From positions 1 to 4,418 of the IMG/VR virus record IMGVR_UViG_3300010279_000132: a DNA stretch of 4,418 nt; one strand, 5' to 3'. Under the pieces are notes generated by a model. The model was given only the letters and a program-made list of their open reading frames with translations, did not search any database and was not told the DNA's origin. Shown here in pieces: positions 1 to 4,418 of the stretch (its first letter is position 1; every line of letters begins with the position of its first letter). The DNA comes from a virus. Taxonomy: Duplodnaviria; Heunggongvirae; Uroviricota; Caudoviricetes. A program made the translations under genes and the position numbers.

Positions 1-341
1 GTCAGCCAGTCAGCGCCAGTCATGCGCTTTTCTGCATCGCCATTAGTCCACTTAACCGGTACACCAATAGCCTTCATCGCGATTTCTATTTCCCCGGCAA
101 TGGCGCTTTTTCCGCAACCAGTAAAACCAGAAACAACGACAAGAACTTCGCCTTTGGCTGGTTTTATTTCCCGTGCTTCCAGTTCTGCAATACGCTTTTT
201 GTCTGCTTCCCGTTCATCCAGTAGTGCCAGCACAATCGATGGTGTTACCAGCTCATGGAAAAGGTCCGCGTCAAATCCCCAGTCGTCATGCATTGCCTGA
301 TCTGCCGCTTCACGCAGTGCCTGGTAATTAATTTCGCTCAC
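1..341 (-). CDS. P-loop NTPase, N-terminal 113 codons only; gene continues beyond the window start
   Basis: Minus-strand frame opens with GTG at 341-339, preceded by AGGAGG (348-353) with a 6-nt spacer, and stays open to position 1. Translation VSEINYQALREAADQAMHDDWGFDADLFHELVTPSIVLALLDEREADKKRIAELEAREIKPAKGEVLVVVSGFTGCGKSAIAGEIEIAMKAIGVPVKWTNGDAEKRMTGADWL. A hydrophobic strand (LVVV) followed by GFTGCGKS fits the Walker A pattern GxxxxGK[ST]. Absent from the ORF track, presumably because it is truncated by the window edge. Family not identified. Confidence 0.55.
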   Translation of the reverse strand, partial: MSEINYQALREAADQAMHDDWGFDADLFHELVTPSIVLALLDEREADKKRIAELEAREIKPAKGEVLVVVSGFTGCGKSAIAGEIEIAMKAIGVPVKWTNGDAEKRMTGADWL

Positions 342-582
342 TGGTTGCCTCCTGTTTTTCTGCCTTCAACACCATGCGAGAACCATCATCCAGCTCCCAC
401 GCGATCTCACCACCTTCAGCCATGACCAGTCGCCACACCAATTGAGCAGCCTCATTGGTAACATCACGACCTGGATCATTGCCAACGCGCATACGTCCAC
501 CTTCAACATCGCGCATTTTTGCCAGCATGATAGTTTTTGATAGCGGTGAAAAACCAAGCTGTAGTCGTGCTGAATTACTCAC
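328..582 (-). CDS. hypothetical protein, 84 aa, GTG start
   Basis: ORF-track frame 328..582. GTG start at 582-580 overlaps the TGA stop of the upstream gene (GTGA) and is preceded by AGGAGG with a 6-nt spacer. Its last 14 nt overlap the start of the next gene. No recognisable motif. Confidence 0.55.
   Translation of the reverse strand: MSNSARLQLGFSPLSKTIMLAKMRDVEGGRMRVGNDPGRDVTNEAAQLVWRLVMAEGGEIAWELDDGSRMVLKAEKQEATSERN
337..353. repeat. 17-nt direct repeat, copy 1 (translation-initiation region of the P-loop NTPase gene)
   Basis: Plus-strand CTCACTGGTTGCCTCCT at 337-353 is identical to 578-594. On the minus strand it reads AGGAGGCAACCAGTGAG, i.e. SD + spacer + GTG start + AG. Confidence 0.9.
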
Positions 583-594
583 TGGTTGCCTCCT
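578..594. repeat. 17-nt direct repeat, copy 2 (translation-initiation region of the 84-aa gene)
   Basis: Identical 17-mer CTCACTGGTTGCCTCCT, 241 nt from copy 1. Flanking bases differ on both sides. Confidence 0.9.
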
Positions 595-1052
595 TTGCGA
601 AGCTGGGCGGCGAACTCGTTAAGTGATATGTAGCAATCTCCAAATGTTAACGAACCGCTCGACTGCATATGCTCCATAGCCATCTCCACGCCCTGCGCAC
701 GTACTTCAGCCAGGAAAGCATCGGTGGCTGGGGTTTTGATTTCGTTAAGCGCATCACTGAATCCACCACGCTCCATACCTAGCTCTGCTTCGTAATCGGC
801 ATCGAATGCAGCGTCTTTGCAGAACTTCTTCATCCCCGAACTCTCCGCTGCCAGCGCCGCGCACTTGGCCTCAAGGTTATCAATCGTGATTCCAGCAGAA
901 CGACACTCCCGCAACGCAGCTTCTAGTTTTGATTCAAGTTCACCGAACTTACGGACAAGATATTCAGCGTTTGTTTCGTTAACCTTTAAATCTCGTGGGA
1001 TGCATTTACCTTTCAGAAATCCATCCATCTCAATTAGTGTCATTTGTTTCAT
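579..1052 (-). CDS. hypothetical protein, 157 aa
   Basis: ORF-track frame 579..1052 ([16 protein letters not shown]...). ATG at 1052-1050 overlaps the TGA stop of the upstream small gene (ATGA). Protein-like composition, no stops, no recognised domain. Confidence 0.7.
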
Positions 1053-1213
1053 TTTTTCCCACTCTGCAACATCGCATTCAGATATTTGTTTTGATTTACT
1101 GACGGAAAAGAATTTCTCTTAAGCAATTCCTCTCTCGATGGCATTGGCTTTACGCGTTGGCGAATAATCATTTCTGCCGGAAGAATGCCGGGATTGTATG
1201 CAAGTCCTCTCAT
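1049..1213 (-). CDS. small hypothetical protein, 54 aa
   Basis: ATG at 1213-1211 preceded by TGAGGA with a 7-nt spacer, directly after the stop of the 98-aa gene. Translation [54 protein letters not shown]. It is the 3' part of the 105-aa ORF-track entry 1049..1366, whose 5' part overlaps the 98-aa gene out of frame. Confidence 0.45.
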
Positions 1214-1223
1214 GATAAATTCC

Positions 1224-1520
1224 TCAGTCATTACTGATAGCGCCATAACGAGAGCGATAATTACGCAGGCGCGGGTCGATATATTCAGGGAAGTGGGTAT
1301 ATGTGGCTTTGCGGAATGGTCGGATTGATGTCTGGTAAATTCTCTCTCGTTCTTCTTTCTCTGCAAGCCATATACAGTGGCGAAATTCCTTTTCCTCTTT
1401 CGTTTCCTGCGGTAGAGACATTATCCGGTCGTAGTTTCTTCTGAATTTATCCAGCACCTCCGATACGGAATTGCCGGAACAGCGGCGCGCGTCATCCGCA
1501 CCATACAGAGGCGCTGGCAT
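1224..1520 (-). CDS. hypothetical protein, 98 aa
   Basis: ORF-track frame 1224..1520. ATG at 1520-1518 preceded by AGGAG with a 6-nt spacer, 13 nt after the ssb stop. No recognised domain. Confidence 0.6.
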
Positions 1521-1533
1521 GATTTTCTCCTGA

Positions 1534-2040
1534 TTAAATTGCGTGAATAGCGTGACGAGGGAAGGGGAGAGTTACTGGTGCAAAGGGTATATCGTCGTCA
1601 AAATCCATCGGAGGTTCGTTGTGTTGTGCTGGTGATGATTGCTGCTGTGGCTTCTGTGATTGCCTGCTGGCTGCTTGTTGTTTGCTGTCGCCAATGCCGC
1701 CAAGCATTTGCATCACGCCATTAATTCCGACATGAACCTCGGTTGTGTAACGGTCTTGCCCTGACTGGTCTTTCCACTTTCTGGTTCTCAGCATTCCCTC
1801 GAAATAAATCTGATCACCTTTTTTCACATACTGCCCAACGACCTCAGCCAGTTTCCCGGATACAGCAACACGATGCCATTCAGTCAATTCCTTTTGCTCG
1901 CCAGTATTTTTATCTCGCCATTGTTCTGACGTGGCTATTGTCAGGTTAGCGAACGCTGTTCCTGATGGTGAGTATCGAACTTCCGGGTCTTGTCCTACCC
2001 GACCAAGGATAATCACCTTATTTACGCCTCTGCTTGCCAT
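1534..2040 (-). CDS. ssb: single-stranded DNA-binding protein (SSB), phage-encoded
   Basis: 168-aa product [23 protein letters not shown]...TEWHRV...[19 protein letters not shown]...[13 protein letters not shown] closely parallels E. coli SSB as I recall it: OB-fold N-terminal domain, Gly/Gln-rich linker and acidic DDDIPF motif. ATG abuts the TAA of the upstream recombinase gene (TAAATG). The frame continues 15 codons past DDDIPF (see findings). Confidence 0.93.
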
Positions 2041-2748
2041 TTATGCCACCTGTTTTAGTTCGTTAACTCTGATGTTCACTATCTGAACGCATTTAGCCTG
2101 CTCCTCCTCGTTGCCAGCCATTAATTGCCAGTCACGCTGATAACGCTCGATGAGTTTTTTCTTGTCAGTTTCTGTTGACGCATAATCGCTGAAGTCTTTC
2201 AGGATTTGTTCGCAGTCAACCGATGGAGATTTCTGGTTGGTATCTTCTGGTGATGGTTTGTTATCTGATGCTGGGATTGCCCATCCCGGAAGCGATGGAG
2301 GGAGCCAGTAAAATCCTGTTCCATCCTTCAGTTTTGCCCTGTGCCACCCCTGCTTTTTATCGAGAGATGTTTGTGCGAAACCTTCCTCAAGGTTATACAG
2401 ATACCGACCGATTCCCCACTGAACGGCAGCGCGCTTCATTGCACCGGAACGACCACCTTTGACGGCTTCTACCTGTGTGTTTTCAGCAGCATCCCATTTG
2501 GTTACCCATTCGGAATCAATCTTTATTGATATGCCGCATTCAACGCCGCCGTTGTTGGGAATATCGCGGTATTCATTGCGCCATCCTGCTTTGCCGCAAA
2601 CATCGTCCAGGCGTTTCATGATTGCCCGGTTCGTGACATAAGCCAGCACCATAGCCCACACCTTGCCATCGCGTGTTTTACCGCTTTGCTGTATTCGCCA
2701 TTCGATATCTTCAGGGCTGAATGGCTCATCGAATTTGTTCAAATCCAT
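2041..2748 (-). CDS. Rad52/Rad22-family single-strand annealing protein (Sak-like phage recombinase)
   Basis: 235-aa product. Segments YVTNRAIMKRLDDVCGKAGWRNE and AMKRAAVQWGIGRYLYN resemble conserved blocks of the Rad52 N-terminal DNA-annealing domain as I recall them (Y..R.I..L...FG..GW and KRAL..FGN). RBS GAGGTG with a 4-nt spacer before ATG at 2748. Sits directly upstream of ssb, a typical phage recombination module. Confidence 0.8.
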   Translation of the reverse strand: MDLNKFDEPFSPEDIEWRIQQSGKTRDGKVWAMVLAYVTNRAIMKRLDDVCGKAGWRNEYRDIPNNGGVECGISIKIDSEWVTKWDAAENTQVEAVKGGRSGAMKRAAVQWGIGRYLYNLEEGFAQTSLDKKQGWHRAKLKDGTGFYWLPPSLPGWAIPASDNKPSPEDTNQKSPSVDCEQILKDFSDYASTETDKKKLIERYQRDWQLMAGNEEEQAKCVQIVNIRVNELKQVA

Positions 2749-2756
2749 AATTCACC

Positions 2757-2927
2757 TCAGAATGGACATGGCCCAAGGAAATAACGCTGGTTTAATACTT
2801 CGACTCGGGACAAATTAAGGCATACCCGCATTCCTTCGCGGTCGCCATTATGGCGATACCAGAGAGCTTTCTGCGTGTACATGCGTCTCTGTAACTTGCT
2901 CTCCTTCACTGTGGTTGCAAGTGACAT
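2757..2927 (-). CDS. small hypothetical basic protein, 56 aa (candidate)
   Basis: ATG at 2927-2925 preceded by AAGGAG with a 6-nt spacer; stop TGA at 2759-2757, 8 nt before the recombinase ATG. Translation MSLATTVKESKLQRRMYTQKALWYRHNGDREGMRVCLNLSRVEVLNQRYFLGPCPF. Overlaps the 52-aa candidate by 80 nt in another frame; too short for the ORF track. Confidence 0.4.
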   Translation of the reverse strand: MSLATTVKESKLQRRMYTQKALWYRHNGDREGMRVCLNLSRVEVLNQRYFLGPCPF

Positions 2928-3006
2928 GAATATCTCCTTCGTTATCGATTAAATCTTTCATCTGACGAATGAATTCTTCGTCTGACCAGTTATCTGTAAA
3001 ACTCAT
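2848..3006 (-). CDS. small hypothetical acidic protein, 52 aa (candidate)
   Basis: ATG at 3006-3004 overlaps the TGA stop of the kil-like gene (ATGA). Translation MSFTDNWSDEEFIRQMKDLIDNEGDIHVTCNHSEGEQVTETHVHAESSLVSP; stop TAA at 2850-2848. No properly spaced SD, so it would depend on translational coupling. Confidence 0.35.
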   Translation of the reverse strand: MSFTDNWSDEEFIRQMKDLIDNEGDIHVTCNHSEGEQVTETHVHAESSLVSP

Positions 3007-3155
3007 TTCCTGCGATACCACGGAAGGTTGATAGCTGATTTCATCGCTTTATTTGCTTCAAGCCACATTTTTGAATCACCAATAAATCTGGCTATTACTG
3101 CTTTGTTCTGTGCAGCTCGAAGCATCTTGTGATTGATGGCTATTTCATTGCGCAT
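3003..3155 (-). CDS. kil: Kil-like small protein (putative host cell-division inhibitor), 50 aa
   Basis: ATG at 3155-3153 preceded by GAGGT with a 6-nt spacer. Translation MRNEIAINHKMLRAAQNKAVIARFIGDSKMWLEANKAMKSAINLPWYRRK. Sits immediately 3' of cIII, as kil does in lambda, and is of similar size. The FIGD-containing segment matches my uncertain recollection of lambda Kil; the call rests mainly on synteny. Confidence 0.5.
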   Translation of the reverse strand: MRNEIAINHKMLRAAQNKAVIARFIGDSKMWLEANKAMKSAINLPWYRRK

Positions 3156-3271
3156 AATAAGACCTCAACTCTTTTCCATCCGTCACGTAATTTACGGGTG
3201 ATTCGTTCAAGTAAAGATTCATTTAATTGGAAGGCACCCATGCGAGCGCCTCCCGCGATTGCGTAAATCAT
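3140..3271 (-). CDS. cIII: CIII-family protein (inhibitor of host FtsH/HflB protease), 43 aa
   Basis: ATG at 3271-3269 preceded by AGGAA with a 6-nt spacer. Translation MIYAIAGGARMGAFQLNESLLERITRKLRDGWKRVEVLLCAMK. The stretch ESLLERITRKLRDGWKR matches the conserved central helix of lambda CIII as I recall it, and the N-terminus MIYAIAG parallels lambda MQYAIAG. Too short for the ORF track. Confidence 0.8.
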   Translation of the reverse strand: MIYAIAGGARMGAFQLNESLLERITRKLRDGWKRVEVLLCAMK

Positions 3272-3295
3272 GGGTGGTTCCTTATGTTGGTTTTA

Positions 3296-4264
3296 TTAGT
3301 AGGTTATTTTTGTTGCGAATACTTCGCCTTTTACGATGGCTGTTATGATATTTTTAGCAACATCTTCTGATGCGCCAACCTTGATAAGGTCAGCAAGTAT
3401 TTTGTTATTTACTTCTTTCCGGTGAGCTTTATCCTTTGCTCTACGCTCTTCTTCGTCCTTGATTCTTTTTTCTTCTGCTATTCTGGCTTGCTCTTTTGCT
3501 TCAGCCTCGCGCCGGATTCGTTCAGCCTCCTCCTGTGCTTTTCGGCGTTCTGCTTCAATTGCCGCATGCTTTTCTCTTTCAGCTCGTTCTGCTGCCTCTT
3601 TTGCTTCGCGCTGTGCTCGTTGCTCGGCTTCAATGCGTTCACGCTCTGCACGTTCCGCTGCGGCCTTAGCTTCTGCTTCTCGCCTTGCTGCTGCTTCAAT
3701 TTCGGCTTTTGCCTTTGCTTCGGCTTCTGCTCTGGCTTTCTCTTCAGCTTCTCTTTTTAAGCGTTCTTCATGCTCTCGCTTTTCCTGCTCCGCTTTGAGT
3801 CTTGCCTCTTCTCTTTGGCGGTCAAATTCGCGATCCATCAAAATCGCTATTTCATGGTCAGACTCAATTTGCTTTGCGAGAGCTTCAGCTGCTGCCTTAG
3901 CTTCTTCTTCGGCTTTAATCCGCGCCTGTTCTTCCTCATAATCAGTAAGAGGCTGGCGTGCCTTGGCTTTCAGCTCATCAAGGCGATCACGCACTGTCTT
4001 GCGGTTGGCATCAATTAGCTTTGGAATTTCCTTCAGTTCAGCAACAAGGTCTTTGCCAACACCATCGAGATATGTTTTCGTCTGCGCAACTTTATACGCC
4101 AGAGAAGCGATCTCCTTTCTGCCCTTTGCCGTTGTGATATCAGGCACAAAGGACATAACTTCACGTTCAACCTTTTGAAGGATTTCTTCAATCTGGTCGG
4201 CAGACTGAAATACAGTCATTGCATTTGCTTTTTCAATAACAACTAATTCTGTTACTTCACTCAT
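3296..4264 (-). CDS. hypothetical protein, 322 aa, with a long E/R/K/A-rich charged helical (coiled-coil or single-alpha-helix-like) central segment
   Basis: ORF-track frame 3296..4318. I place the start at the ATG at 4264-4262 (MSEVTELVVIEK...), which has GGAGG (4273-4269) 4 nt upstream; the track's upstream ATG at 4318 has no RBS and would span the terminator hairpin. N-terminal about 130 aa look globular, the middle about 140 aa are E/A/K/R-rich, and the last about 35 aa (NKILADLIKVGASEDVAKNIITAIVKGEVFATKITY) are hydrophobic/amphipathic. No transmembrane segment apparent. Confidence 0.85.
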   Translation of the reverse strand: MSEVTELVVIEKANAMTVFQSADQIEEILQKVEREVMSFVPDITTAKGRKEIASLAYKVAQTKTYLDGVGKDLVAELKEIPKLIDANRKTVRDRLDELKAKARQPLTDYEEEQARIKAEEEAKAAAEALAKQIESDHEIAILMDREFDRQREEARLKAEQEKREHEERLKREAEEKARAEAEAKAKAEIEAAARREAEAKAAAERAERERIEAEQRAQREAKEAAERAEREKHAAIEAERRKAQEEAERIRREAEAKEQARIAEEKRIKDEEERRAKDKAHRKEVNNKILADLIKVGASEDVAKNIITAIVKGEVFATKITY

Positions 4265-4276
4265 ATATCCTCCATC

Positions 4277-4303
4277 AAAAAAATTGCCCTCACATTGGAG
4301 GGC
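4277..4303 (-). terminator. candidate rho-independent terminator (tL1-like) on the minus strand
   Basis: On the minus strand: GCCCUC-CAAUGU-GAGGGC (6-bp stem with 5 G:C pairs, 6-nt loop; plus 4286-4303) followed by AA and seven U (plus 4277-4285). The RBS of the next gene begins 3 nt after the U-run. Confidence 0.55.
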
Positions 4304-4342
4304 AAAGAAGATTTCCAATAATCAGAACAAGTCGGCTCCTGT

Positions 4343-4418
4343 TTAGTTACGAGCGACATTGCTCCGTGTATTCACTCGTTGGAATGAATACACAGTGCAG
4401 TGTTTATTCTGTTGTTTA
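4343..4418 (-). other. possible 3' end of a minus-strand ORF entering from beyond the window (24 codons then TAA at 4345-4343)
   Basis: One minus frame is open from the window edge: KQQNKHCTVYSFQRVNTRSNVARN*. Too short to distinguish from chance. If real, it would be the gene preceding the terminator, the position the N gene occupies in lambda. Confidence 0.2.
4366..4393. repeat. perfect 9-bp inverted repeat with a 10-nt spacer
   Basis: GTGTATTCA (4366-4374) ... TGAATACAC (4385-4393), spacer CTCGTTGGAA. Lies upstream, in transcription sense, of the terminator and the first gene. Function unknown. Confidence 0.6.

Follow-up and report, generated by a model that had tools for sequence, protein, structure and literature searches.

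The window analysed here, a stretch of 4,418 nucleotides (nt) from a virus of the class Caudoviricetes (IMG/VR record IMGVR_UViG_3300010279_000132, positions 1 to 4,418), carries two small open reading frames (ORFs) between kil and the gene for a Rad52-like recombinase. The two overlap in different frames and raise the question of whether this DNA encodes two proteins, only one, or a single protein whose gene has been split by a frameshift, each of which had been put forward in a preliminary description of the window. There are 54 ORFs of at least 30 residues in the window and ORFs of this size are common by chance, so that the reality of the pair rests on comparison with relatives. In our view, this comparison makes it likely that these are two separate small genes: ORF52, which would consist of an Arf-like N-terminus followed by a by-product tail, and ORF56, a probable recombination accessory gene. 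Of the choices offered at the outset, the best is that both ORFs are real, although they do not stand on an equal footing: selection on ORF56 is strong, while ORF52 is conserved as protein only in its N-terminal third. The features of the pair are as follows.

2848-3006, minus strand: ORF52, acidic, 52 residues, Sf6 gene 30/HK97 gp42.1 family (phrog_2123)
2932-3006, minus strand: Arf-like N-terminal part of ORF52, codons 1-25, with the motif WSDEEFIRQM
2848-2931, minus strand: tail of ORF52, codons 26-52 and stop, in the other frame across the 5' part of ORF56
2934-2940, minus strand: ribosome-binding site of ORF56, GAAGGAG, within the ORF52 codons for N-E-G-D
2757-2927, minus strand: ORF56, basic, 56 residues, Sf6 gene 29/HK97 gp42 family (phrog_1723)
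2848-2927, minus strand: out-of-frame overlap of ORF52 and ORF56, 80 nt
2749-2759, minus strand: junction of ORF56 and the recombinase gene, with the ORF56 TGA inside the recombinase ribosome-binding site (TGAGGTGAATT, then ATG)

The sequence confirms what the preliminary description gave for the positions of the two ORFs, the ATGA shared with kil, the strong ribosome-binding site, the 8 nt gap before the recombinase and the 80 nt out-of-frame overlap. The ATG of ORF52 (3006-3004) lies inside the ATGA at the end of kil and its stop is a TAA at 2850-2848; the predicted peptide has an isoelectric point of 4.3 and a net charge of about -10. ORF56, which lies in the +1 frame relative to ORF52, runs from an ATG at 2927-2925 to a TGA at 2759-2757, with an isoelectric point of 10.0 and a net charge of about +6. 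Its GAAGGAG ends 6 nt upstream of the ATG, and the ATG of the recombinase (2748) follows 8 nt after its stop. We note that a GTG 15 nt upstream of the ORF52 ATG (3007-3021, minus strand) lengthens that open frame to 57 codons. Owing to a change that is silent in kil, the triplet is an ATG in HK022 and in some IMG/VR loci, and the peptide would then begin MVSQEMSFTDNW....

Comparison with related phages indicates that the two-ORF layout is the standard one and that both frames are conserved in diverged lineages. The 701 nt around the pair are 98.3% identical to Shigella phage Sf6 and phage IME10 and up to 99.1% identical to prophages in complete Escherichia coli genomes; matches to at least part of this query were found in 2185 of 5426 such genomes, and to nearly all of it in 149. 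The pair has been annotated already, as genes 30 and 29 in Sf6, 42.1 and 42 in HK022 and gp42.1 and gp42 in HK97, and the two are thus known genes of lambdoid phages. In Sf6 the position and the 80 nt overlap are the same, with gene 29 being 100% identical to ORF56 and gene 30 96% identical to ORF52; the HK022 and HK97 pairs likewise share the position and the out-of-frame overlap, although the HK97 record differs in that its pair is fused by two extra bases. The ORF52 allele of the window, with substitutions at two places (Asp18 and Asp21), is found in exactly this form on only two contigs. The exact ORF56 sequence occurs on at least 1000 contigs. Against the PHROG profiles, ORF56 matches phrog_1723 with an E value of 9.4e-36 (residues 1-56 on profile positions 3-58 of 58) and ORF52 matches phrog_2123 with an E value of 1.1e-40 (residues 1-52 of 52). 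The ORF56 family is small, with 21 representatives at 50% identity found by a profile search among 1.84 billion representative proteins; these are short phage-type proteins and a few spurious long ones, and offer no functional lead. The 90% cluster that holds ORF56 has as its representative an Erf fragment of 165 residues (P0136), and many of its members are named 'ERF family protein, partial'; P0136 does not contain the ORF56 sequence, so that this cluster membership is probably a clustering artefact.

The HK97 record speaks for a single gene of 82-83 residues, either split in two by a frameshift mutation or sequencing error or translated as one through a programmed +1 ribosomal frameshift that joins the halves. 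In this record, the only phage record with a fused version, one uninterrupted ORF of 83 residues (gp42.1) corresponds to ORF52 residues 1-43 followed by ORF56 residues 18-56, and about eight further fusion proteins, of 82 residues and in one case 81, are present in the protein collection. Alignment of the DNA, however, shows that the HK97 fusion results from two single-nucleotide insertions 6 nt apart, CATGT[C]ACACGC[G]AGAAAG (locus L084, AF069529.1, approximately 1630-1650). These insertions are found in none of the 1007 copies of the segment from the 5426 complete E. coli genomes, among which the best match reaches 97.9% (139 of 141 nt), so that they represent a sequencing error or a change private to a laboratory stock. 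The other fusion proteins each have a different junction, and these are spread across the overlap; since any single-nucleotide deletion in the overlap fuses the two frames, scattered junctions are what sporadic deletions or assembly errors would give. The two-ORF state, on the other hand, is found in hundreds of IMG/VR loci and in the Enterobacter-type relatives, in which ORF52 is 44% identical over its first 36 residues, and ORF56, which occurs by itself in other phages, has conserved a start and a ribosome-binding site of its own. Inspection by eye of 2927-2848 revealed no shift-prone or known +1 motif, the context of the ORF52 stop being CCA TAA TGG. We consider a split gene extremely improbable on these grounds, which refute the suggestion that the ORFs are halves of one frameshifted gene. 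As a separate observation, the HK97 record has Met in place of Ile26, which gives an in-frame start beside the ORF56 ribosome-binding site.

Of the two frames, that of ORF56 carries the clearer signature of selection. The first two sets of loci were best matches to ORF56, and sets chosen in this way force ORF56 to look invariant; the polymorphism test was therefore repeated on a sample anchored on kil, which is neutral for both ORFs. In the kil-anchored sample the part of ORF56 that lies outside the overlap has 8 nonsynonymous and 21 synonymous changes, compared with approximately 19 and 8.5 expected, and within the overlap the omega value of the ORF56 frame is approximately 0.32 (p 0.013). 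Against diverged relatives of the Enterobacter type the C-terminal half has omega values of 0.06-0.16. The protein ends in a conserved motif, LNQ[RK]YFLGxxPF, which in the window reads EVLNQRYFLGPCPF-stop. All members of the family end in Pro-Phe, and the Pro is encoded by CCA, CCG or CCC, which indicates conservation at the protein level. The ribosome-binding site is kept in the diverged lineages in which the upstream sequence was read, namely the E. coli-type alleles and, as a shifted GAGGA, L096. Some loci have ORF56 but no ORF52, among them those of Salmonella phage S9-5, Erwinia phage vB_EhrS_59 and a Kluyvera genome, and in several of these loci the ORF52 frame contains early stops. Judged by these substitution patterns, ORF56 is clearly a selected gene under purifying selection.

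The position of ORF56 relative to other genes is equally constant. In all of the approximately 190 complete loci with ORF56 in the set L004-L200 the next gene begins 1-10 nt downstream (1-13 nt when every complete locus examined is counted), and it encodes a member of the ERF family (two subtypes), of the Rad52_Rad22 family or of an AAA_24/Sak4-like family. Phage S9-5 is the one apparent exception, in which an HNH homing endonuclease has been inserted between ORF56 and the ERF gene. Two distant members of the family (59 residues, with an identity estimated by eye at roughly 35-40%) are likewise followed after 8 nt by an ERF gene, in one case without an adjacent kil. In all lineages examined the ORF56 stop either is part of the recombinase ribosome-binding site or immediately precedes it, as TGAGGTG or as TAA followed by AAGGTG, and a stop placed inside this site suggests that translation of ORF56 and the recombinase is probably coupled. 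The occurrence of one family directly before three unrelated recombinase families argues for an accessory factor of single-strand-annealing recombination, and from gene order and coupling we infer that ORF56 is probably a recombinase-associated accessory protein.

A link between ORF56 and a particular part of the recombinases was considered and dropped. Recombinases with different cores (Rad52-like, ERF and AAA_24/Sak4-like) share a homologous C-terminal domain of approximately 45-56 residues (...ERYQRDWQLMAGNEEEQAKCVQIVNIRVNELKQVA), which is encoded in the window at 2041-2190 (approximately 50 codons) and is seen in loci L005, L096, L195 and L089 and also in P22 Erf. This domain corresponds to the known 'domain swap' of Erf (PMC2629481). 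It was not retained as evidence specific to ORF56, since the domain is present in P22 Erf, where there is no ORF56, and by eye is missing from the L087-type ATPase.

AlphaFold2 predicts ORF56 to be a two-helix hairpin (residues 7-26 and 30-49) with a mean pLDDT of 92, the C-terminal tail being modelled at lower confidence. When PDB sequences were searched with the ORF56 profile, no match fell below an E value of 0.2, and all that Foldseek retrieved for the model from the PDB and BFVD were generic helical hairpins with E values above 0.1. Scans of both ORFs against Pfam, NCBIfam and PADLOC gave nothing meaningful, the sole match being a sub-threshold tail-terminator hit for ORF52.

The SSB tail ends in ...D-I-P-F, and the synteny with three recombinase families together with the conservation of Pro-Phe across synonymous Pro codons led us to a more far-reaching proposal, which we regard as improbable when taken as a whole. 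ORF56 might be an unrecognised general partner of phage single-strand-annealing proteins (SSAPs), with its x-Pro-Phe end mimicking the tip of the SSB tail. The Pro-Phe tip could then dock on the SSB-tail pockets of the recombinase or of ExoI, RecJ, RecQ or PriA, the docking could protect or hand over recombination intermediates, and the acidic Arf-like helix of ORF52 could be a partner or regulator of ORF56. The SSB tip normally needs a free C-terminus. We note that the SSB of the window (1534-2040, minus strand) has the canonical tail followed by 15 extra residues (the last 15 codons, approximately 1537-1581), and that these match the C-terminus of an HNH-like gene of 159 residues located after ssb both in Sf6, as gene 26, and in locus L327. 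It seems that a deletion has joined ssb to the last part of the HNH-like gene, burying the SSB tip; an identical ssb of 507 nt is present in E. coli LR-28.

Turning to ORF52, the comparison with P22 arf drawn in the preliminary description proved to be a good lead. Alignment of the ORF52 and Arf families with hhalign gave a probability of 92.4% and an E value of 5.2e-7 over 26 columns, with a Klebsiella Arf (MSAAEKWNDDEFIQLMSDAIGE...) as an intermediate between the families, and the PHROG profile for Arf (phrog_2445) matches ORF52 weakly (E 0.004). The N-terminal 25 or so residues are conserved in Enterobacter-type, Pseudocitrobacter and other relatives with omega values of 0.15-0.48. In this region the differences at codon positions 1, 2 and 3 number 4, 6 and 10 in comparison with the diverged relatives and 6, 8 and 16 in comparison with Klebsiella arf, and one lineage carries an in-frame indel of 3 nt, such that 76 nt instead of 79 separate the starts of ORF52 and ORF56. 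Where the context could be read, the start of ORF52 stays at the stop of the upstream gene, as ATGA after kil and as GTG in Pseudocitrobacter. AlphaFold2 predicts one helix (residues 9-22) with moderate confidence, followed by a disordered tail with pLDDT below 50. By these comparisons, the first 22-25 or so residues of ORF52 are homologous to the N-terminal part of P22 Arf, and it is only this part of ORF52 that shows conservation at the protein level.

According to the account of Arf in PMC12315714, which cites Poteete, Fenton and Semerjian (1991), this protein of 47 residues is an accessory recombination function that aids homologous recombination in P22 but is not essential, a function described for P22 only, and its molecular function is described there as not established. 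P22 Arf and ORF52 are alike in being small, acidic and encoded directly after kil at the head of a recombination module, and in their approximately 25 homologous N-terminal residues, which share the motif [WF]-S/N-D-E/D-E-F-I and have a predicted or likely helix in both. They differ in that P22 Arf has the conserved C-terminal motif ERQNPxIxWDEFAG, whereas this is absent from ORF52, the C-terminal half of which is unrelated and variable and is an alternate-frame reading of ORF56. The gene order also differs: arf abuts erf in P22 with a 4 nt overlap, whereas in the window ORF56 lies between ORF52 and the recombinase. Since the C-terminal motif is missing, ORF52 is not filed as an Arf orthologue.

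The tail of ORF52 behaves differently from its N-terminal part. Across the overlap the omega value of the ORF52 frame is greater than 1, and 11 of the 15 polymorphisms in the overlap (kil-anchored sample) change ORF52 while being silent in ORF56. The length of the tail was examined by randomising the ORF56 codons synonymously; the ORF52 frame then remained open for at least 24 codons with a probability of 0.4-0.8, and the median was mostly 23-27 codons. An open frame of this length is expected by chance, so that the observed tail of 27 residues needs no selection, and the idea that selection keeps it open was rejected. On this evidence, the tail of ORF52 is an unconstrained read-through into ORF56.

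The same observations bear on the possibility that ORF52 acts in cis, with ribosomes that reinitiate at the kil stop setting the output of ORF56 and, via coupling, that of the recombinase, the peptide itself being irrelevant. This would agree with the placing of the ORF56 ribosome-binding site and start inside ORF52 and with a tail whose residues are unconstrained yet whose frame is usually open. No stable RNA structure sequesters the ORF56 start, however (z-score -0.87), and when the region was scanned with Rfam, by RNA folding and for terminators and promoters, neither an Rfam family nor a significant RNA structure, a terminator or any other RNA element came to light. ORF56 stands alone in phages without ORF52, the openness of the tail is accounted for by chance and the conservation of the N-terminal protein sequence would be left unexplained. 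We judge a purely cis-acting ORF52 to be improbable.

How the two genes came to overlap is suggested by the alternatives found at the same place. P22 has the order kil-arf-erf. A second common allele after kil (L279 and 27 other loci) has an acidic ORF of 35 residues (MSFTDNWSDEEFIRQMNKMLNQHKEQEKDDDSDSE), the first 16 codons of which specify the residues also found in ORF52. Next come an overlapping acidic ORF of 103 residues, without a Pfam match, and a RecT-family recombinase. The mosaic junction of this allele lies within a coding sequence. This allele and the P22 order together identify the arf-like 5' segment as a joint between kil and different recombination modules. On the gene orders compared, ORF52 is the result of an arf-like joint fused to a module that begins with ORF56.

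Several results weigh against a functional ORF52 or against the role proposed for the pair. A tblastn search with P22 Arf retrieved no ORF52-carrying phages at E values up to 1, and the Arf similarity spans only about 26 residues. Among the E. coli-type alleles the part of ORF52 outside the overlap (codons 2-26) has 11 nonsynonymous and 4 synonymous changes, with a population omega of approximately 0.88 that is not significant, compared with approximately 0.21 (p 2e-6) for kil in the same loci. Alleles with a premature stop or a replaced N-terminus are present in L017, L145, L054 and L122, and forms of 39 and 35 residues occur on 27 and 18 contigs, respectively. The ORF56 hairpin has no informative match in fold or sequence, so that it is gene order that argues for a role in recombination, and a full-text literature search found no paper on either peptide, on gp42.1 or on Sf6 genes 29 and 30.

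Much of this would fit a view in which ORF56 is the only functional gene and ORF52 is the decaying scar of an arf-like gene at a module joint, without a function of its own, whether or not it is still translated. Besides the lack of purifying selection in the population, nonsense and truncated alleles of ORF52 are not rare, mosaic joints have exchanged its N-terminus in L054, in L122 and in the proteins P0020, P0032 and P0038, the length of its tail is that expected by chance and the residues of its first 16 codons are shared with the different ORF of 35 residues, which suggests a recombination linker rather than a selected protein. Against this, the frame of ORF52, its start on the kil stop and its N-terminal sequence persist across lineages with pS values of 0.4-0.85, and it is in these lineages that the low omega values, the third-position bias and the in-frame indel described above are found. 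The N-terminus is also conserved as protein with bona fide Arf proteins, even though the DNA is only 55-64% identical. We note further that alleles A and B are near-identical over approximately their first 133 nt, so that the polymorphisms in this segment may be young and the selection test may lack power here. In our view, a scar without function is somewhat unlikely, and we favour the interpretation of ORF52 as a second gene that is conserved in its N-terminal part.

The wider gene order bears on a further question. The genes of the window all point the same way, with the minus strand as coding strand, and correspond to a section of the early-left (PL) operon of a lambdoid phage or prophage. 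The neighbours of the pair are listed here in the order of transcription.

3296-4264, minus strand: protein of 322 residues, rich in Glu, Ala, Lys and Arg, with the look of a coiled coil and no Pfam match
3140-3271, minus strand: cIII, upstream of kil (Pfam Lambda_CIII, E 4e-15)
3003-3155, minus strand: kil, inhibitor of host division, ending in AAATGA (Pfam Lambda_Kil, E 1.4e-20)
2041-2748, minus strand: single-strand-annealing recombinase (SSAP) of the Rad52/Rad22 family (Pfam PF04098, E 5e-26)
1534-2040, minus strand: phage ssb, part of the recombination module
1224-1520, minus strand: abc2, anti-RecBCD gene (Pfam Anti-RecBCD_p2, E 1.4e-60)

Further small ORFs lie beyond abc2. The protein of 322 residues carries the PGAP label 'TolA' and has its counterpart in Sf6 gene 33; in L327 a relative of 331 residues is encoded immediately before ORF56.

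In lambda, gam follows kil, and this position is the basis of the suggestion that one or both ORFs are functional counterparts of Gam, inhibiting RecBCD or another host nuclease. One could add, speculatively, that the invariant Pro-Phe end of ORF56 has a loose likeness to the SSB tail tip, by which host nucleases are recruited. Neither ORF, however, has a match to Gam, GamL, MuGam, Abc2 or any other Pfam, NCBIfam or PADLOC entry, and the map position of lambda gam right after kil is all that the pair has in common with lambda Gam and P22 Abc2, there being no sequence similarity. Both ORFs are far shorter than Abc2 (98 residues here), which is itself encoded separately in the window. The module already contains, at 1520-1224, the actual functional counterpart of lambda gam in abc2, this gene also accompanies the ORF pair in HK97 and HK022, and the ORF56 family tracks the recombinase gene and not the anti-RecBCD gene. 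Because abc2 lies downstream and neither ORF resembles an anti-RecBCD protein, the idea of a gam equivalent or nuclease inhibitor is not supported, and we consider it very unlikely.

Taken together, the explanation that we favour, with two separate small genes, can be set out along the operon in the order kil, ORF52, ORF56, recombinase, ssb and abc2. ORF52 would most likely begin by termination and reinitiation at the kil stop (ATGA), and its N-terminus would form an acidic Arf-like helix. Its frame would then cross the ribosome-binding site and start of ORF56 and continue until the first stop, with the tail of 27 residues being a by-product of the mosaic joint at which an arf-like gene meets the ORF56-recombinase module. 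ORF56 would be translated from its own strong ribosome-binding site, and its predicted structure is a hairpin of two helices followed by a flexible tail, the last residues of which are always Pro-Phe. The analysis establishes the coordinates of the ORFs, the conservation of both frames, the patterns of selection, the synteny and the fold prediction. The translation of either ORF, its coupling to neighbouring genes and any role in recombination are what we infer from the comparisons described above.

The pair has a parallel in the Rz/Rz1 genes of lambda, where two proteins are also read from the same DNA on the same strand in different frames. Both products of Rz/Rz1 are functional. In the overlap described here, unlike that of Rz/Rz1, only the ORF56 frame is constrained and the ORF52 frame is a neutral extension. 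The pair is a clean example of a long same-strand overlap with one selected frame, in which the second frame owes its existence to an arf-like gene running on into the next gene across a mosaic joint.

There are also consequences for annotation. PHROG and RefSeq phage records call both small ORFs 'recombinase', a label that is probably wrong and looks to have spread from the neighbouring gene. In RefSeq E. coli genomes PGAP often annotates ORF52 only, or neither ORF; ORF56, which is the better conserved of the pair, is often left unannotated because it overlaps ORF52. The ORF56 family marks the start of recombination modules built on three unrelated recombinase families, and recombineering systems derived from Erf-, Rad52- or Sak4-type phage proteins may consequently lack a cofactor. 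In our view, the most useful outcomes of this analysis are the point of annotation and the identification of ORF56 as a candidate recombination cofactor.

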